DNA of 64,000 nucleotides from Promethearchaeota archaeon. Its GTDB lineage: Archaea; Asgardarchaeota; Lokiarchaeia; Sigyniarchaeales; SOKP01. Below are positions 20,491-29,783 of the stretch, piece after piece. The DNA lies in assembly GCA_019057795.1 (NCBI GenBank), contig JAHLWS010000087.1, positions 1-64,000 of the forward strand, written 5' to 3'. Under the pieces are notes generated by a model. That model was not told the origin of the DNA, searched no databases, and was given only the letters and a program-made list of their open reading frames with translations. Both the position numbers and the translations under genes were made by a program. Each line of letters opens with the position of its first letter. The first letter of the stretch is position 1.

Positions 20491-23235
20491 CTATTTTTTA
20501 TCTAAATATTTTTCTTGGAGATATTTATCAATTCCGTGAGCTGCTCGCTTGCCCGCTCCCATAGCAGAAATTACAGTAGCGGACCCCGTTACGATATCTC
20601 CACCAGCAAATATCTCTTCAATATTGGTTTGAGATTTTTCATCCGTTTCGATGTAGCCCCATTTGGATATTTTCAATTCTGGTATTGATTTAGTTAAGAT
20701 TGGATTTGCTCTTGTTCCTATGCCTATAATGATCGTATCTATATCAATTAGATATTCTGAATTTTCGATTGGAATGGGACGTCTACGCCCAGATTCATCA
20801 GGTTCCCCTAATTCCATTTTAATAACTTCCATTTGTATAAGATCGTCGTTTTCATCTCCAATAAATTTCACTGGATTTGTTAAGAATTGAAAAACAACGC
20901 CTTCTTCTAAAGCGTGGTGATACTCCTCCTTTCTTGCAGGCATCTCTGCTTCGGACCTGCGATAAACAATCATAACCTTTTCAGCACCTAATCGTAAGGC
21001 GGTTCTAGCGGAATCTAAAGCGACATTTCCCCCTCCTAAAACAGTTACAATTTTACCAATTTTAATAGGAGTATCGTATTCAGGAAACTTAAAAGCCTTC
21101 ATTAAATTCGATCGAGTGAGGAATTCGTTAGCAGATAAGACGCCATTTAGGTTTAATCCCGGTACTTTTAAAAATATTGGTAGTCCCGCCCCAACCCCAA
21201 TAAAAAAGGCTTTAAACCCCATATCTTTTAAATCTTCGATCGTTAAAGTTTTACCAATAATTACGTTATATTCAACTTTAACATCTAACATCTTTAAAGT
21301 CTCAATTTCGCTTTTGACTATCTCTTTTGGCAACCTAAACTCTGGAATTCCGTAAGTTAATACGCCTCCACCAGCATGGAACGCTTCAAATATAGTGACA
21401 TCGTAGCCATTCATCGCAAGCTCTCCAGCACAAGCTAAACCCGCCGGTCCAGAACCTATAACTGCAACTTTAATACCTTTAGGAGCTGCACATTCGGGAC
21501 ACTCTTTAAGATTTTCTTCTCTTTCCCAGTCTGCGATGAATCTTTCCATATAGCCTATTGCAATTGGTTCTCCAAGACCACTTAATAAACAATATTTTTC
21601 ACATTGAGATTCTTGCGGACAAACTCTTCCACAAATAGCTGGCAATAAATTATATGATTTTATTTCGTATAGAGCTCCAATGTATTTTTCTTGCTTCAAT
21701 AATTTTATAAATTGAGGAATTCTTATGTTAACGGGGCATCCAGTAACACAGAGCGGGTCTCCACACTGTAAGCATCTATGTGATTCTAACTTGACCATAT
21801 CAATCGTCAATCCCTTAGGAACCTCTTCAAAGTTATTTTTCCTAATATTGGGGTCTTGCTCAATCATCTTTGGGCGATGATATTCTTCAAACTTCTTTAA
21901 TTTAGATTTTGCTATTCTACTTAGAGATTCAAAACTTTTACTATCTTCTTTAATCTCTTTCTTAACGATCATATTAAGATCCAAAGCTTTTTGAAAGAAT
22001 TCAGCACCCGTTTTAGTTCGTATAAATACCGTTGACCAGCCAGGATCAGAACCAATAGATCCTACGGAAATATCAGCGTGTATCGATGTCAAATCGTCGC
22101 AAAAAAAGCAACCTGACCGACCATACTTTTTAATTTTTTTTATTGGAACATCAAAAACAGAACCGTTATGATCGTAGATTATAAAACGCCCTTTATTAAT
22201 ATCCATTTTTTTAACATCAGCAGGAGTAGATTTAAACTCAGTTTTTAAAAGTTCAACAATTTTTATGTAATCAAACGATTCCATGCAGAGCAATCCGATC
22301 TTTAAAGCAATCTTTTCACAAAATGGTCTATTAAACGGAAAAAATGAAATTTTTTTAAGCGCTTTCATGATACAAGGCGTACCCACTACTGCAAATTTAT
22401 CGTGATCCCTACAGCCCTGAAATATTTTTAAAATAGGAGCATTTGTATATTTTGTCCCTGCTGTATGTAGGAGTGCATCTTCATCTTCAATTAAATGTGG
22501 TAACGGTTTTAGAGGTTCTTCCCCCTCAGTTACAGCTAGAGCACCGTCGATTAATTTTTGTTGAAACGCCATTTTCAGCAGCGTAGTCACAATTCCTCCA
22601 TCTTGAGCAACTGGAGTTATTCTTTCATCAGTTGTTTGAGCAGTACAAATTTCCCGATAATAATTGAATTGCTCTAAAAAGTTAATATCAGGATCATCGT
22701 TTTTTTCTGGTACCTCTAAAACCTTCGGAAAGAATGCTCGTGGACAGCAAGTATAACATAACCCGCAATCAATGCACATTTCTTCGTCAAAATCAAATGT
22801 CTCCTCAGAATAGTCTATTGCTCCAACTGGACAAATGGAAGCACATAACCCGCAACCACTGCACAGATTTTTGTCTTTAATTATTTTTACATTAGGAAAA
22901 ATACCGTTTTGTTTAGAAATTTCTACTACATCTTGAAAAAACCTTGGTTTCTCCCCAATAAAACCTAAAAAGCCTAGCTCTTTTAGATACTCAATATTGC
23001 ATAACAGATTTTTTTCTGATAATTGTAGTTCTTTTTTCAATTTAGGAATATCAATAGAGCCATATTCTTCTATCTTTTCTAGAATTCCTTGTCTGGAACG
23101 CTCTACATCGGTTAATTCGCTAATTAAATCTCCAAATTCTGCCTCGTTATATTTTTCTGACTTCAGAATCTTTTCTTTATTTGTAAGTAATATTTTAACT
23201 AAAGATCTTTGCTTTTCCATTTTAAGACACCTCAC
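20491..23235 (-). CDS. Fusion of wHTH-like N-terminus, 2x[4Fe-4S], FrhB-like F420-binding domain and NfnB/SudA/GltD-like NADPH flavoprotein
   Basis: CSGCGLCASICP and CIDCGLCYTCCP; FrhB motifs AQDGGIVT, AGTKY, VGTPC, IGLLCMESF, GCFFCDD..ADISVGSIGS; NfnB motifs RCLQC..CVTGCP, CGRVCPQESQCE, IGSGPAG, GGGNVA, YRR, FAGGDIVTGSATV. Confidence 0.9.
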   Translation of the reverse strand: MRCLKMEKQRSLVKILLTNKEKILKSEKYNEAEFGDLISELTDVERSRQGILEKIEEYGSIDIPKLKKELQLSEKNLLCNIEYLKELGFLGFIGEKPRFFQDVVEISKQNGIFPNVKIIKDKNLCSGCGLCASICPVGAIDYSEETFDFDEEMCIDCGLCYTCCPRAFFPKVLEVPEKNDDPDINFLEQFNYYREICTAQTTDERITPVAQDGGIVTTLLKMAFQQKLIDGALAVTEGEEPLKPLPHLIEDEDALLHTAGTKYTNAPILKIFQGCRDHDKFAVVGTPCIMKALKKISFFPFNRPFCEKIALKIGLLCMESFDYIKIVELLKTEFKSTPADVKKMDINKGRFIIYDHNGSVFDVPIKKIKKYGRSGCFFCDDLTSIHADISVGSIGSDPGWSTVFIRTKTGAEFFQKALDLNMIVKKEIKEDSKSFESLSRIAKSKLKKFEEYHRPKMIEQDPNIRKNNFEEVPKGLTIDMVKLESHRCLQCGDPLCVTGCPVNIRIPQFIKLLKQEKYIGALYEIKSYNLLPAICGRVCPQESQCEKYCLLSGLGEPIAIGYMERFIADWEREENLKECPECAAPKGIKVAVIGSGPAGLACAGELAMNGYDVTIFEAFHAGGGVLTYGIPEFRLPKEIVKSEIETLKMLDVKVEYNVIIGKTLTIEDLKDMGFKAFFIGVGAGLPIFLKVPGLNLNGVLSANEFLTRSNLMKAFKFPEYDTPIKIGKIVTVLGGGNVALDSARTALRLGAEKVMIVYRRSEAEMPARKEEYHHALEEGVVFQFLTNPVKFIGDENDDLIQMEVIKMELGEPDESGRRRPIPIENSEYLIDIDTIIIGIGTRANPILTKSIPELKISKWGYIETDEKSQTNIEEIFAGGDIVTGSATVISAMGAGKRAAHGIDKYLQEKYLDKK

Positions 23236-24106
23236 TCCTATGTCTTTTTAAAGCTCTACATTCTTCGTCGTAACATTCTAAGGATTCCTTCTCTTGATCA
23301 ATAAATCTATTAGCGCGTTTCAATAGATTATCAAAATCTACGATATGACCATCGACATCAGGGCCGTCAACACACGCAAATTGAACGCCTCCGTCAAGCG
23401 TTGAAAAGCGGCAACCACCACACATTCCAGTTCCGTCAATCATAATTGTGTTTAGGGAGACAAATGTTTTTACTTTAGGTAAATCACTAGACCCTTTAGT
23501 TGTAAGAGCAACAAATTTCATCATTATTAAAGGTCCAATTGCGATAACAATGCTTATTTTTTCTCTTTTCATTATTTCTGAAAGTGGTACAGTGACAACT
23601 CCTTTAGTTCCCTCGCTTCCGTCATCTGTACAAATAATTACTTCATCGCTTACTGAACTCATTTTTTCTTTCCAAAACAATAATCCGGTATTTCTAGCAC
23701 CTAATATCGAAATAACTTTATTTCCTGCTTCCTTTAATTCTTTTGCCTGAGGATAAATTGGTGCAATTCCAATCCCACCTCCAATTATCACTACGGGATA
23801 TTCGTACTTTTTAACATGAATTTTATTTCCTAAAGGCCCCACTACATCAAGTATCGTATGCCCTACTTCTAAATGTGAGAGCAATTTCGTGCTTTTTCCA
23901 ACAACTTGAAATACTATAGTTATCGTTTCTTTCTCTCGATCGTAATCTGCAATGGTTAATGGAAAACGTTCGCCAGTTTCATTGATTCTTAGTAATATAA
24001 AATTTCCCGCAAATGCTTTTTTAGCGATTAAAGGAGTAGAAATTATCATTTCAAACACAATACCGCTAGTCCCAAGTTCGTTTTTTTCTAAAATTTCAAA
24101 TGGCAA
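23222..24106 (-). CDS. nfnA: NfnA/SudB-like FAD/NAD-binding [2Fe-2S] subunit
   Basis: GERFPLTIAD, GPLG, GGGIGIAP, DDGS, DGTGMCGGC...ACVDGP. It overlaps the downstream NfnB fusion. Confidence 0.9.
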   Translation of the reverse strand: MPFEILEKNELGTSGIVFEMIISTPLIAKKAFAGNFILLRINETGERFPLTIADYDREKETITIVFQVVGKSTKLLSHLEVGHTILDVVGPLGNKIHVKKYEYPVVIIGGGIGIAPIYPQAKELKEAGNKVISILGARNTGLLFWKEKMSSVSDEVIICTDDGSEGTKGVVTVPLSEIMKREKISIVIAIGPLIMMKFVALTTKGSSDLPKVKTFVSLNTIMIDGTGMCGGCRFSTLDGGVQFACVDGPDVDGHIVDFDNLLKRANRFIDQEKESLECYDEECRALKRHRSEVS

Positions 24107-24598: not shown

Positions 24599-25228
24599 AT
24601 GGAAGTTTTAGAGTTTCATCCTATAAAAAATAAAACGGTTAATGTCTATTTAATAAGAAGAGAAGACAGAGATTTATTAAGTTTACATAATAGTAATTTA
24701 GAAAAAATCATAGAAGCAGAAAAATTTAAGTTTGCAATTGTTGATTTTAACGATCCTGAGGTTAAAAAATATTATCAGACTCCTTTATCAGAGTTTATAG
24801 AGAAATTCCATTTGCCTTATTACGAAGTTGAAATCCCTGAAAGTATTAAATCTTATTTTTATGTTGAGCTTTTAGACTTGGAAGTACAGATAGAAGAATT
24901 AGAGGGAGAATATGAAAAACTTCTTTTGAATAATCAAAAAGATACATTTAAAGCTCAGAGCTTAAACTCCTGGATATATTTGTTAAAAGATAAAGTGGAA
25001 TATACTAAAAACCTATTAGAATATACCATAAAACCAAAATGGATTGTAAAAAAAATATTAGATGTTGTAAATAACATCAAAAATGATAATTTATCTATAA
25101 TCCATTTTGCTCATGAAGATTTAATTTCTGAACTGAAAAAATTATTTGAAGAATATAATATCAAAGTCATAAAATATGATATTCGAGAAGAGAAATTAAA
25201 ATCAATCGTAATGTTAAAGGAGGGATGA
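24599..25228 (+). CDS. Hypothetical protein, paralogous to the N-terminal domain of the next gene
   Basis: Shared blocks LPYYEVEIPE / IPYEFVDIPD and WIYLLKD / WKQLLKD. ATGA overlap with the next gene. Confidence 0.7.
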   Translation: MEVLEFHPIKNKTVNVYLIRREDRDLLSLHNSNLEKIIEAEKFKFAIVDFNDPEVKKYYQTPLSEFIEKFHLPYYEVEIPESIKSYFYVELLDLEVQIEELEGEYEKLLLNNQKDTFKAQSLNSWIYLLKDKVEYTKNLLEYTIKPKWIVKKILDVVNNIKNDNLSIIHFAHEDLISELKKLFEEYNIKVIKYDIREEKLKSIVMLKEG

Positions 25229-26895
25229 AAATAATGCAAGTTTTAGAATTAAAACGATTAAAAGAAAAAAAACTTAAATTAATATTAGTTGAGAGTGAAT
25301 TTAGGATAGATTGGGCTTTAGAATTACCAAAAGAAGAAGGAATACTGGGTAATTTATTTTTTGTTTCTAGGGCGTACATAGAATTTATTAAAGATTTAGT
25401 GAACAAATACCACCCTAATTTCGTAGTAGAAGATAAAGGAATGCGCTCAAGTGAAGAACCATCTATTGATGATGAATTTGGAGCGATTTTTCTAAATGCA
25501 GATATCCCATATGAATTTGTGGATATTCCGGATTATGCATTAAATGTAATTTCAGCACCACTAATGGATAAGAAAGGTTTTATAAAAAAAATCACAGAAG
25601 AGATTGAAAGTTATAAAAAAATGGGTCGTGTACATTATAACGATCCTAATTTTCAACAGTTAATTATTTGGAAACAATTATTAAAAGATGATTTCAAAGC
25701 ACAAGAAGATGAAATAAGATATAAAGTCCGTGAAGCTTGGATGATGATGACTATCTTAGAATTAGCCAAAAAACAAGAAAAAAACCAATTAAAAGCATTT
25801 TTTATTACTGATAAAAGTCATTTTGATGGTATCACATTTTTAGCTAAAGAATTGGATATAGGAATTGAAATAATTAATCTTAAGAAAGTTACAGAATATC
25901 CTGATGAAGAAACATCGATTAATGACTTATTGAATAGATCTATACTTGAAATAATGCCTATAAAAGTTATAAAAAAAGAAAAAGAAGAAAGAATTTTATA
26001 CTTTTTTGATACGGATGAGTATTGTTCTCCTTTTGATACAAATATGGGCTATGATGCGGGATTTGATATAGTAATACCATATTCTAGAATGAAAGCAGAC
26101 AGTGTCTCAAGGCTAGTTCAAGATGCTATGTTCTCTCGAAAAGCGGGAGCTTCTTCAGTTTATTTTGTTGGTGGTTCTGATGTTATAGAAAGTGAAAAAA
26201 TTGCGGAGGAAGTTTTGAAAACAATTATTCCTCCATTTGAATCTCCTGTAATTATAGATCCACGTGGTTCTCATACAACAGCTTCAGCAATAGTTGCAAA
26301 AACACTAGAGGTTGCAAGAAAACATGGATTTTCAGATTTATCAGGTAAAAAGATAATTTGTTTAGGAGGAACTGGCCCTGTAGGGCAAATTTCCGCTCTA
26401 ATTGCTTCAAAACTTAAAGCAAAAGTAGTCATTACTTCAAGAAGAGAACAATTCGTAAAAGAATTGGCAAAAGATTTGACTAAGAAGGCAGGAAGAGGTG
26501 CCACTAAGATTATAGGAGAGCCCGCAAATTCAGATGAACAATATCTGAAAATAGTGAAGGACGCAGATATAATATGGTCTGTTGGTAAAGCAGGAGTCCA
26601 AATAATCTCAAATAAATTAATGAACCAACTACCTCCAAATAAAATTGTCGTAGATATTAACTTGGTTCCCCCCTATGGAATAGAAGGAATGAAACCAGAC
26701 TATTATAATACGGAGTTCTATCCGGGTATTTATGCGATAGGTGCTCTTAACATAGGACGATTAAAATACAAAATTGAGAGGGAAATCTTTAAGAAAGCTT
26801 TAAAGACAAAAGGTAAAAAAGTCTTTGATTATAATATTGCTTTTGAAATTGCTAATAAGATAGTATTTGGCGAGGAAATAAAAATCTTAGTTTAA
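25225..26895 (+). CDS. NAD(P)-dependent methylene-H4MPT/H4F dehydrogenase (MtdA/MtdB family) with a ~250-aa extra N-terminal domain
   Basis: ILYFFDTDEYCSPFDTNMGYDAG, VQDAMFSR, DPRGSHTTASA, GGTGPVG, DINLVPPYGIEG, IGALNIGRLKYK. Confidence 0.88.
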   Translation: MKIMQVLELKRLKEKKLKLILVESEFRIDWALELPKEEGILGNLFFVSRAYIEFIKDLVNKYHPNFVVEDKGMRSSEEPSIDDEFGAIFLNADIPYEFVDIPDYALNVISAPLMDKKGFIKKITEEIESYKKMGRVHYNDPNFQQLIIWKQLLKDDFKAQEDEIRYKVREAWMMMTILELAKKQEKNQLKAFFITDKSHFDGITFLAKELDIGIEIINLKKVTEYPDEETSINDLLNRSILEIMPIKVIKKEKEERILYFFDTDEYCSPFDTNMGYDAGFDIVIPYSRMKADSVSRLVQDAMFSRKAGASSVYFVGGSDVIESEKIAEEVLKTIIPPFESPVIIDPRGSHTTASAIVAKTLEVARKHGFSDLSGKKIICLGGTGPVGQISALIASKLKAKVVITSRREQFVKELAKDLTKKAGRGATKIIGEPANSDEQYLKIVKDADIIWSVGKAGVQIISNKLMNQLPPNKIVVDINLVPPYGIEGMKPDYYNTEFYPGIYAIGALNIGRLKYKIEREIFKKALKTKGKKVFDYNIAFEIANKIVFGEEIKILV

Positions 26896-27029: not shown

Positions 27030-29783
27030 TTAGTTGAGAAACAAGAGTTTACCAATAAAGCTTGTTAGATCCACGACTTTAATTTTGTTTTTTAATTCTT
27101 TCTCTTCGTTCAAATAACAATTAAAGTGGGCTAAACACTTGGGGCAACTAACAATTAGATACTCGGCACCAGTATCGATCGCCTCTTTAATACGGGTAGC
27201 TTGAATCTCTTTTGAGTACTCATTACAACTTATATAAGCGGAAACTCCACAACATAAAGCATCTTTTTTATTACTCTCCATCTCAATTAATTCAATAAAT
27301 GGAATCTTATTTAATACTTCGCGGGGCGCATCGTAAACATTACTCAATCGTCCTAATCTACATGCGTCGTGATATGTAACTCTTATTTTTTCAGAAATTG
27401 GGAATTTAACATCGTCTATTAAGTGTTCCTTTAGGATGTACTCTGTTACGTGATAAATCTCAAAGTTAAACTCGTCAGTTCCTTTAAATAATTTTGGATA
27501 CTCATATTTCCATGTATGATAACCCTCTGCACAACTAAGTATTAATGTTTTTACTCCAGCGTCGTTAAATAACTGAACATTGTGTCTTGCTAACTTTTCA
27601 AATGTATCAGTATCTCCTTGCCATAAACTATCGTGTCCACAACATTTTTCGTTTGAAAGAACTACAGGCACAATTTCTTTTTGGTTTAAAAGACCTATTA
27701 CTACTCTTGGAATCTTAAGGAAATCCAACGCATTATAAAAAGGAACAACGGGTTGTATACCATAACTACAATCTTGTATATTAGATTCATCGCATGAATT
27801 TACGTAAACATCTAATTTTTGATCTGTACTACAACAAATATTGCAATTTAAACACCTACTTGCTTCTTGGATTGCACTTTCTTCCGTGAGAGGTAATTCG
27901 ACCTCATTAAAGCTTCTTAATCTTTCTTGTATAGGCAACAAATCTATACATTCTTTGGGCATTTTACTGGCTTCTTTTTTAGGTATTGGAGCAAGTTTAG
28001 AATATTTTTTAATGACTCTATTTTTTTTTAAACCAACTCCTCTAAGATATCTATCAATAGAAATCGCTGCATTATTTCCATTTCCTATGGCTCTAACAGC
28101 TATCCCTTCGCCTGGGATTACATCTCCCCCTGCAAAAATGTTAGGAACATTAGTTTGCATTGTTAATTCGTCTGTTATAATTCTCCCCCACCGGTCTATT
28201 TCTAATTGGTCATGAGCAGCTTCTAAAAGCGTTAATTCTGTACCTTGTCCAATAGCAAGTAGCAGAAAATCAAGGTTCATTTTAAACTCTGATTCTTCTA
28301 TAGGAATTGGTCTTCTCCGACCAGATTTATCTAATTCGCCAAGCTCCATACGAATGCATTCTATTTCTTTAAGAATTCCTTCTTGATCTCCAATTGCTTT
28401 TATTGGATTTGTTAAAAATTGAAACTCAACATTTTCTTCCTTTGCCATTTCAATTTCTTCTTCTTGAGCGGGCATTTCCTTTTCAGAACGACGATAAATC
28501 ACTACGACTTTCTTAGCACCTAATCTTAAAGCAGTTCTAGCAGAATCCATGGCAACATTTCCTCCACCTACTACGCCTATAATTTTATCTTTGAAATCAA
28601 ATTGTTTTTTTGTTAAATTTTTATCTTTGAGAAAATTTAGACCGCATAAAACGTTCTTAAGGTTCTCTCCTTCCATTTTGAGCCCTAAACAAGTCTGCTG
28701 CCCTATCGAAATAAAAAAGGCTTTATAGCCCTGTTTTTCTAAATTTTTAAAAGATAATTTAGGTCCTACGGGAGTATTTAATTTTATTTCAACTCCCATT
28801 TTTTCGATAAAGTCAATTTCATAATCTAAAATATAGGCAGGTAAACGATATCTTGGAATCCCAGATCGTAAAGTCCCTCCTTTATAAATCTCTGCTTCAA
28901 ACACAGTAGGTTTATAACCTTGTCTCGCTAAAAAATAAGCTGCGGATAACCCTCCAGGACCAGCACCTATTATAGCTACTTTTTCCTTAAATTGCTTAAC
29001 TGGTTTAATACTGGATTTTGCTTTGTTGTTTAATTCCCAATCTGCGATGAATCTCTTTAAAGATCGAATACCAAGAGCTTCATCGATATCTTTGCGATTA
29101 CATTCAAGCGCACAAGGCTCTGTACAAACTCGCGCACATATCATAGGAAAGGGGTTGCTTTCCCTAATTAAATCAATAGCTTCTTGAAATTTACCTTCCG
29201 AAATTAATGAGATATAACCTTGAACATCAACTCCTGCGGGACACGCATTAGAACACGGAGGAATGGAATTCATAAAAGGAAGGCACCCCATAAAATAGGC
29301 GGTTTCCCCTTTGTCTGTAAATTTTAATTTAGTGTAATCTAAAAACCCGAGTTTGTTATCGATACTAACATTGTCATTTGCCATTAATTGAGGTAAACTT
29401 GAATATACTCTATCGTGATGACATTCAAGTTGTTCTGTCTGTAAAATCTCAGATTCGGAAGTAAGAGTGCGGAGACTTTTAATAATTTCTACAAAATCTA
29501 CACCAGTATTATCCTTAAACATAGGACAATACTCCATGCATTGCCCACAAGTTAAGCAGTTCCAAATATTATTGTTTTCTAACGCTTCCTCTAGCGGTAG
29601 GAAAGTCAAATCAGTAATCAATTTTCTTGGAAAAAACGTACCTACAAAACTTGTAGGACATACGTTAACACAACGATTACAATCGTAACAATAATTTGCG
29701 TTGGCTATTACTTTATTAATGACTTCACTATAAATTTTAGACCTTTCTTTTTTAACACTTTCAGTATCTTTAGATTCAGTCAT
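27030..29783 (-). CDS. HdrD-like (HdrC plus two CCG domains) protein with an inserted NfnB/GltD-like FAD/NADPH module
   Basis: CYDCNRCVNVCP, CLTCGQCMEYCP, AYFMGC; insert PPCSNACP...GAGPGG...GGGNVA...YRR...RCLNC; then EKCCG, SCAEG, YHDACRLGR, CCG, SCPKC. Confidence 0.88.
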   Translation of the reverse strand: MTESKDTESVKKERSKIYSEVINKVIANANYCYDCNRCVNVCPTSFVGTFFPRKLITDLTFLPLEEALENNNIWNCLTCGQCMEYCPMFKDNTGVDFVEIIKSLRTLTSESEILQTEQLECHHDRVYSSLPQLMANDNVSIDNKLGFLDYTKLKFTDKGETAYFMGCLPFMNSIPPCSNACPAGVDVQGYISLISEGKFQEAIDLIRESNPFPMICARVCTEPCALECNRKDIDEALGIRSLKRFIADWELNNKAKSSIKPVKQFKEKVAIIGAGPGGLSAAYFLARQGYKPTVFEAEIYKGGTLRSGIPRYRLPAYILDYEIDFIEKMGVEIKLNTPVGPKLSFKNLEKQGYKAFFISIGQQTCLGLKMEGENLKNVLCGLNFLKDKNLTKKQFDFKDKIIGVVGGGNVAMDSARTALRLGAKKVVVIYRRSEKEMPAQEEEIEMAKEENVEFQFLTNPIKAIGDQEGILKEIECIRMELGELDKSGRRRPIPIEESEFKMNLDFLLLAIGQGTELTLLEAAHDQLEIDRWGRIITDELTMQTNVPNIFAGGDVIPGEGIAVRAIGNGNNAAISIDRYLRGVGLKKNRVIKKYSKLAPIPKKEASKMPKECIDLLPIQERLRSFNEVELPLTEESAIQEASRCLNCNICCSTDQKLDVYVNSCDESNIQDCSYGIQPVVPFYNALDFLKIPRVVIGLLNQKEIVPVVLSNEKCCGHDSLWQGDTDTFEKLARHNVQLFNDAGVKTLILSCAEGYHTWKYEYPKLFKGTDEFNFEIYHVTEYILKEHLIDDVKFPISEKIRVTYHDACRLGRLSNVYDAPREVLNKIPFIELIEMESNKKDALCCGVSAYISCNEYSKEIQATRIKEAIDTGAEYLIVSCPKCLAHFNCYLNEEKELKNKIKVVDLTSFIGKLLFLN

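Follow-up and report, generated by a model that had tools for sequence, protein, structure and literature searches.

The 64,000-nucleotide stretch analyzed here (hereafter the window; positions 1 to 64,000 of the forward strand of contig JAHLWS010000087.1, assembly GCA_019057795.1, from a Promethearchaeota archaeon of the Lokiarchaeia, Sigyniarchaeales) carries on its reverse strand a two-gene unit, nfnA and a large-subunit gene, that resembles the gene pair of the electron-bifurcating transhydrogenase NfnAB. The large protein was found to consist of four parts: a helical N-terminal domain, a ferredoxin domain with two [4Fe-4S] clusters, a FrhB module and a complete NfnB. We read the pair as probably encoding an iron-sulfur flavoprotein complex of NfnAB type, to which an F420 oxidoreductase of FpoF/Fsr-N type (ferredoxin domain plus FrhB) is covalently joined, in place of soluble ferredoxin or in addition to it. 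In known NfnAB, NADPH reduces the NfnB flavin. One electron then reaches NAD+ by way of a [2Fe-2S] cluster and the flavin of NfnA, and the second travels through a proximal and a distal [4Fe-4S] cluster to ferredoxin, for which the presumed docking site is close to the distal cluster in the N-terminal domain of NfnB (PMC5861303). Because a complete F420-reacting module is fused to the NfnB N-terminus, F420 is probably the third partner of the complex instead of ferredoxin.

The nfnA gene spans positions 23222 to 24106 of the window (reverse strand; 294 aa, TTG start, TAA stop at 23224-23222). Both open reading frames (ORFs) were confirmed where a first-pass annotation of this DNA had placed them. 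That annotation had described the large-subunit gene as a 914-aa frame overlapping nfnA, which corresponds to its longest ORF (20491-23235), reaching a GTG at 23235. By contrast, the approximately 100 large-subunit homologues (902-935 aa in length) were found to align from M6 onward, and a putative Shine-Dalgarno-like sequence, GGAGTGAGGTG (23228..23238, reverse strand), can be read within the 3' end of nfnA, 5' of a conserved ATG at 23220. The large protein is thus taken to be 909 aa in length (20491..23220, reverse strand; stop codon at 20491-20493) with no overlap of nfnA. Its ATG lies 1 nt past the nfnA TAA and the two genes abut; the apparent overlap is rejected as an artifact of taking the first GTG as the start. 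Residue numbers of the large protein are counted throughout from this GTG. A search of the window against Rfam gave no match.

The nfnA product scored above the cut-off of the NCBIfam NfnA-type model PRK06222 (3.2e-106) and aligned with the small subunit of P. furiosus NfnI (5jca_S, 2.2e-81) and with T. maritima NfnA (4ylf_A, 6e-71) in the Protein Data Bank (PDB). The Asp/Cys [2Fe-2S] motif, DGTGMCGGCR...ACVDGP, is retained. By these sequence criteria the protein is a PyrK-like small subunit with a predicted flavin adenine dinucleotide (FAD), NAD(H) site and [2Fe-2S] cluster, and it is the sole true NfnA of the genome.

The C-terminal 455 residues of the large protein span the whole of T. maritima NfnB (4ylf_B, 1.5e-162, the best PDB match), with P. 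furiosus NfnI-L also matched along its full length (5jca_L, 4e-151); by Foldseek, sequence identity to 4ylf_B was 55% over 461 columns. The alignment with T. maritima NfnB begins at residue 8 of that protein, equivalent to residue 457 of the fusion, and the NCBIfam model TIGR01316 was matched over residues 463-906 with 568 bits versus a cut-off of 472. The N-terminal Fe-S domain of this half (21511..21843, reverse strand; residues 465-575; Fer4_20 PF14691, 2.4e-37) is predicted to bind two [4Fe-4S] clusters, and its motifs, RCLQC..C...CP and CGRVCPQExQCExxC, follow the T. maritima NfnB pattern and are invariant in the family. The FAD domain, with the putative bifurcating flavin, and the NADPH domain follow (20551..21471, reverse strand; residues 589-895; Pyr_redox_2 PF07992, 1.7e-37). 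Here the motifs GIPEFRLPK and VYRRSE.EMPAR (NADPH) are retained, and both are invariant in 32 homologues.

N-terminal to the NfnB half lie the two domains that set this protein apart. The ferredoxin domain (22726..22887, reverse strand; residues 117-170, with the Pfam Fer4 dicluster match at 117-166) has two sets of [4Fe-4S] ligands, C125/128/131/135 and C154/157/160/164, all eight of which are invariant in the same 32 homologues; its counterparts in alignments are the ferredoxin domains at the N-termini of 8rja_E, 8riu_B and Fsr. The FrhB-type flavoprotein module (21880..22668, reverse strand; residues 190-452), predicted to carry FAD and a single [4Fe-4S] cluster and to have a putative site for F420, was recognized by Pfam FrhB_FdhB_N (PF04422, residues 198-271, 6e-21, 74.8 bits with a cut-off of 22) and FrhB_FdhB_C (PF04432, residues 279-430, 8e-40, 136.6 bits with a cut-off of 23.3). 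When the ferredoxin and FrhB domains were taken as one unit, solved F420-reducing modules were matched with E-values of 5e-53 to 1e-38 overall, including the FrhB proteins of M. barkeri (6qgr_B, 4.9e-53) and M. marburgensis (3zfs_C, 1.2e-48), FwdI (8rja_E, 1.5e-49), ACDS zeta (8riu_B, 9.5e-48) and Fsr (7npa_A, 1.5e-45).

The residues expected around the FrhB cofactors are likewise retained. Cysteines C288, C317, C376 and C379, which form the PC..C..CxxC pattern of a non-canonical [4Fe-4S] cluster, are invariant in the 32 homologues; the loops QDGG, GTKY and GSIGS..GWST are invariant or nearly so, and the first two align with FrhB, FwdI and zeta. In M. marburgensis FrhB, F420 is adjoined by the S209-V210 loop and an IGKGK turn (Mills 2013, PMC3591093). 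The counterpart of the former is S393-I394, which is invariant, and that of the latter is INKGR, which falls inside the variation of solved F420 reductases. The two [4Fe-4S] motifs, full FrhB motif set and complete NfnB reported by the first-pass annotation are therefore in agreement with the Pfam, NCBIfam and PDB alignments. Compared to close relatives, the ratio of nonsynonymous to synonymous substitution rates (dN/dS) was 0.09-0.14 in the NfnB half, 0.18-0.21 in the FrhB module, 0.18-0.27 in the ferredoxin domain and 0.35-0.57 in the N-terminal domain. All four domains of the large protein are under purifying selection, and with its cofactor motifs invariant the F420/FAD pocket shows none of the degeneracy that would have counted against F420 chemistry.

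The N-terminal helical domain (22906..23220, reverse strand; residues 6-110) is less readily placed, as residues 1-115 gave no Pfam or NCBIfam family match. The domain is conserved across the fused family and all-helical in the AlphaFold2 (AF2) model, with a predicted local distance difference test score (pLDDT) of about 90. It had been described as a segment like a winged helix-turn-helix (HTH), a description that may hold in part. The best VIA matches of the core at about residues 45-93 were the HTH domains of Lrp/AsnC (Z 6.0-6.5, rmsd 1.3-1.6 Å, 49 residues); neither a beta wing nor strands were predicted, and Foldseek returned no significant match for the domain (best E-value 1). On the model, the domain is weakly HTH-like, in this core only. 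In free-standing FrhB paralogues (L054:3001-4371, L055:3001-4380, L056:369-1739 and L027:2889-4217; a class with open frames of about 500-640 aa), identity to the fusion is 17-25% over the helical domain and 34-37% over the whole N-terminal half. It thus seems that the helical domain is a trait of a Lokiarchaeial subfamily of FrhB rather than of the fusion alone.

The distribution of the fusion was examined at several levels. A word-indexed protein search detected about 100 protein clusters, 59-93% identical, that share this architecture over their full length, in records named Lokiarchaeota, Promethearchaeota or Hermodarchaeota, most of which are labelled 'NADPH-dependent glutamate synthase'. 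When 1.84 billion representatives (clustered at 50% identity) were searched by HMMER, one other full-length fused representative was found and the remaining strong matches covered the NfnB half only; because there was only one such representative, the fusion is, at the sequence level, one tight family. Among 400 genomes of the phylum, fused ORFs (909-938 aa) were confined to the family of the window, in about 60 genomes of seven genera, and this query did not find them in any other family of the phylum. Within the same order, the sister family lacked the fusion and the FrhB module in all 14 genomes, several of them closed. Some genomes of this Lokiarchaeial family have two fused copies. At one locus (L024:7367-13742, G175:C211) a single nfnA is followed by two tandem fused large-subunit genes, in which the NfnB halves are 78-79% and the N-terminal halves 60-63% identical to those of the window. 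All carriers of the fusion are uncultured (named records of metagenome-assembled genomes).

An assembly chimera, which would have undercut the first-pass reading, is rejected on the grounds of the approximately 100 clusters, the approximately 60 genomes and junction-spanning contigs from other studies. DNA contigs of two independent metagenome studies span the FrhB/NfnB junction. Metatranscriptome contigs from two libraries (90-95% identity) were also detected, one of which spans the FrhB/NfnB junction and one the junction of nfnA with the large-subunit gene; these give a weak hint of transcription, as carry-over of DNA is possible. Given such extreme E-values and the recurrence of the architecture in many genomes, chance is not a concern. 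The suggested search for FrhB plus NfnB next to nfnA was also borne out: in 30 of 30 related loci examined, nfnA was found directly upstream of, and co-directional with, the fused gene.

The genome (4.95 Mb, 100% complete, 7.5% contamination) provides a setting in which F420 is expected. As had been proposed for follow-up, genes of F420 biosynthesis were sought and were detected above curated cut-offs, with 371 bits for cofG, 461 for cofH, 329 for cofD and 268 for cofE; by its gene content, the organism is predicted to be able to make F420. An F420-dependent Mtd is encoded (G000:C82:25524-26333). No match above cut-off was found in the genome for Fno, nor any match for Mer (TIGR03555) in this 100%-complete assembly. 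At the family level, 98 of the 105 genomes in the family with the fusion had cofD, versus one of nine in the sister family that lacks the FrhB module, a co-distribution that, with related genomes, represents few independent events. The cofD gene lies near a cofE match (G000:C73:12511-14845) that falls within a 472-aa open frame, about twice the usual length of CofE, in keeping with the dual-function FbiB-like protein that a review of F420 reports from Lokiarchaeota; the same review describes Asgard F420 genes and 'potentially additional unknown processes' (PMC8498797). Free-standing NfnB was absent from the genome, which has four NfnB-like modules, all inside large fusion proteins. About 10 FrhB paralogues were found in varied contexts, including POR genes, polyferredoxins, CCG proteins and PyrK-like proteins. 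FrhB modules are thus general connectors in this genome, which fits the idea of a plug-in unit.

Precedents for such a unit are known. The ACDS zeta subunit (8RIU chain B) and FwdI (8RJA chain E) of Candidatus Ethanoperedens thermophilum replace the ferredoxin acceptor on carbon monoxide dehydrogenase (CODH) and Fwd, respectively, with measured F420-reductase activity (bioRxiv 10.1101/2024.01.23.576903). These plug-in F420 reductases of ferredoxin-dependent enzymes are the closest solved relatives of the ferredoxin and FrhB unit described here, although they are separate subunits on CODH or Fwd, whereas the unit of the window is fused to NfnB and has an additional N-terminal helical domain. 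Fsr (7NP8/7NPA) similarly combines a ferredoxin domain and FrhB in one chain with a catalytic partner that is fed via a chain of [4Fe-4S] clusters, and the architecture found here corresponds to the 'Fsr-N type' in the terms of PMC3448663. In Fsr and FpoF/FqoF the partner is a siroheme sulfite reductase or a respiratory complex, in the window it is NfnB, and the module of the window scores below the FpoF cut-offs. With NfnAB itself the system shares the two-gene unit, the PyrK-like small subunit with its Asp/Cys [2Fe-2S] motif and a full NfnB with both [4Fe-4S], FAD and NADPH motifs; it differs by about 450 extra N-terminal residues and in its third substrate, probably F420 and not free ferredoxin. 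In NfnABC (9N5U, 9BOV), StnABC (8OH5) and the HdrA-NfnB fusions of ANME-1 (PMC9012536), an NfnB-like NADPH flavoprotein module is also joined to other redox modules, but these have no FrhB and have not kept the canonical NfnA partner as here. Fno would link the same F420 and NADP pools, yet it is a small enzyme of unrelated type, in which hydride transfer is direct and neither Fe-S clusters nor a flavin are present.

Based on these likenesses, a path of electrons may be proposed. NADPH would reduce the NfnB flavin, and the first electron would reach NAD+ via the [2Fe-2S] cluster and the flavin of NfnA. The second would travel through both NfnB clusters, then through the two of the fused ferredoxin domain and the one of FrhB, to the FAD of FrhB, which would gather two electrons and pass a hydride to F420. 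We infer the segment from the distal NfnB cluster to F420 from the site of the fusion, at the N-terminus where ferredoxin is presumed to dock, and from the precedent of Fsr, ACDS zeta and FwdI, whose two-domain unit bridges Fe-S chains to an FAD that exchanges hydride with F420. The net reaction would be 2 NADPH + NAD+ + F420 <-> 2 NADP+ + NADH + F420H2, estimated at about +8 kJ/mol with E0' values of -320, -320 and -360 mV. It would be near equilibrium and reversible, and would not be an energy-storing step in the way that ferredoxin reduction is. The enzyme would act as a three-way equalizer of hydride pools (NADPH, NADH and F420) in a genome with no detected Fno. The transhydrogenase linking NADPH, NADH and F420/ferredoxin that the first-pass annotation envisaged is in this respect partly supported.

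Several points weigh against this assignment. The module missed the equivalog cut-off for FrhB (NCBIfam TIGR03289 frhB, 222 bits versus 331.5) and those for FpoF (NF040616, 158 bits versus 475; PRK09326, 171 versus 444); by these scores it is a member of the FrhB family and neither FrhB proper nor an FpoF orthologue. The FrhB motifs may fail to distinguish F420 users from F420-independent members of the FrhB family, and the variety of the FrhB paralogues in the genome warns that F420 use need not hold for every FrhB. The AF2 model of the large protein had a mean pLDDT of 76.8 and a predicted template modelling score (pTM) of only 0.61, with low confidence in the linker of about 10 residues between FrhB and NfnB (21850..21879, reverse strand; pLDDT <50 at residues 459-471), and the presumed position of the fused unit at the exit of NfnB is based on its N-terminal attachment and on precedent. 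Energetically, F420 (E0' about -360 mV) is not a low-potential acceptor, and the energy of the 'hot' electron would be lost in bifurcation to F420; if the reaction ran backward, F420H2 would donate only weakly to the very low-potential clusters of known Nfn. For flavin-based bifurcating enzymes, ferredoxin or flavodoxin has 'to date always' been the second acceptor (Buckel and Thauer 2018, PMC5861303). It is a rather doubtful further step to regard the complex as the first flavin-based bifurcating enzyme with a two-electron hydride carrier as second acceptor, with an obligate NADPH:NADH:F420H2 stoichiometry of 2:1:1, through which the F420 and NADH pools of Lokiarchaeia would set the potential of NADPH and, by extension, whose single NfnA also serves an HdrD-like/NfnB-like neighbor to form a hub to disulfide reduction.

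Of the alternatives, the one that survives best, although we consider it unlikely, is a non-bifurcating F420H2:NAD(P)+ oxidoreductase that replaces Fno, in which electrons would flow from the FrhB flavin through the Fe-S chain and the NfnB flavin to NADP+ and NfnA would be an independent NAD(H) outlet. The failure to find Fno in the genome is consistent with this arrangement, as is the use of NfnB/GltD-like modules as a simple entry for NADPH in NfnABC (9n5u, 9bov) and StnABC (8oh5); moreover, with the three-carrier reaction near equilibrium, coupling would gain little (potentials from PMC5861303). By contrast, NfnA is well conserved and was adjacent in every one of the 30 loci, the NfnB half has the cluster and flavin motifs of the bifurcating T. 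maritima enzyme, and the flavin semiquinone of that enzyme is extremely unstable, which should prevent electrons from entering one at a time through one branch alone (PMC5861303).

Slightly less probable again is that the FrhB module works without F420, as an FAD/Fe-S relay or as a site for another substrate, with the N-terminal domain docking a partner (e.g., HdrD-like/GltD) in a larger, disulfide-linked complex. The proximity of the module to solved bona fide F420 enzymes, the retention of residues that adjoin F420 and the family-level co-distribution of F420 biosynthesis with the module argue for F420 use instead. This alternative draws on the very varied redox contexts of the FrhB paralogues, on the scores below the FrhB and FpoF equivalog cut-offs and on a conserved N-terminal domain with no assigned role. 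It would also account for a gene encoding an HdrD::GltD protein directly upstream of nfnA in at least nine of the 30 loci and for a single NfnA among four NfnB-like modules, but that neighbor is missing from many loci.

We give still less credence to a hub of four substrates, in which soluble ferredoxin would exchange electrons at the exposed fused clusters and F420 would be an extra branch, so that F420, ferredoxin, NADH and NADPH were all connected, a reading for which the first-pass annotation had left room. The fused ferredoxin domain does have two standard clusters, as in soluble ferredoxins; in Fsr, ACDS zeta and FwdI, however, the corresponding domain is an internal bridge with no docking of a second carrier. 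Finally, a role as small subunit in a glutamate synthase that depends on NADPH or F420, as homologues are named in databases, as TIGR01316 ('gltA', above cut-off) would have it and as has been proposed for putative F420-dependent enzymes with FrhB-type subunits in methanogens (PMC3448663), is very improbable and the database name is rejected, since no GltB lies near the locus and none in the genome is genuine (best PF01645 match 32 bits, partial), structures of NfnB match far better (1e-162) than those of GltD (1e-79), and the NfnA partner is adjacent in all loci examined.

With regard to the surroundings of the preferred NfnAB-type complex with its fused F420 module, two neighboring units were noted as context and not as parts of the enzyme. 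A pair on the forward strand (24599..26895) that diverges from nfnA comprises a gene for a 209-aa protein and a gene for a 556-aa methylene-H4MPT dehydrogenase of MtdA/B (NAD(P)) type (PF09176 Mpt_N, 5e-22). This pair is similarly divergent from nfnA at four related loci (L036-L038 and L049) and is co-directional, directly upstream and operon-like at two others (L027 and L031). On the reverse strand, at 27030..29783, lies a gene for a 917-aa HdrD-like protein with an NfnB/GltD-like module (Pfam CCG, Fer4, Fer4_20 and Pyr_redox_2), which is the HdrD::GltD protein named above and is encoded co-directionally with nfnA at the loci where it is directly upstream. Its NfnB/GltD-like module is 45% identical to the NfnB half of the fusion, and the protein might share the single NfnA of the genome.

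Elsewhere in the genome, other FrhB proteins were observed in arrangements of their own. An 821-aa ORF (L061:5241-7706, G000:C80) combines FrhB and NfnB in a second way: a complete NfnB/GltD-like module (Fer4_20 and Pyr_redox_2) is inserted inside FrhB_C, between FrhB_N with the start of FrhB_C on one side and the end of FrhB_C on the other, and the gene follows an Oxidored_q6 gene of hydrogenase small-subunit type. At a second locus (L059:2840-7348, G000:C42), POR_N, TPP_enzyme_C and POR genes of a 2-oxoacid:ferredoxin oxidoreductase are followed, after 2 nt, by a gene for a 605-aa fusion of FrhB with a PyrK/NfnA-like FAD/NAD/[2Fe-2S] domain (30% identity to NfnA), which may represent a 2-oxoacid oxidoreductase wired to F420 or NAD(P) in place of ferredoxin. 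A third (L057:11744-17543, G000:C22) encodes a polyferredoxin (442 aa), two FrhB proteins (one of 502 aa that is extended far at its N-terminus and one of 370 aa) and a CCG HdrB-like protein (322 aa), and looks like a further uncharacterized F420-linked redox complex.

Full-text searches of the literature found no paper on a FrhB-NfnB fusion. If the proposed function is correct, an F420-wired Nfn would either break the rule that the second acceptor is ferredoxin or flavodoxin or show how the bifurcating scaffold was repurposed, a hypothesis that is directly testable although the hosts are uncultured. The 'glutamate synthase' label in databases misleads metabolic reconstructions of these organisms. 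The complex would supply the missing link between F420 and NADP in a large and abundant group of marine-sediment Asgard archaea that make F420 in the absence of Fno, archaea whose redox metabolism is central to models of syntrophy and eukaryogenesis.

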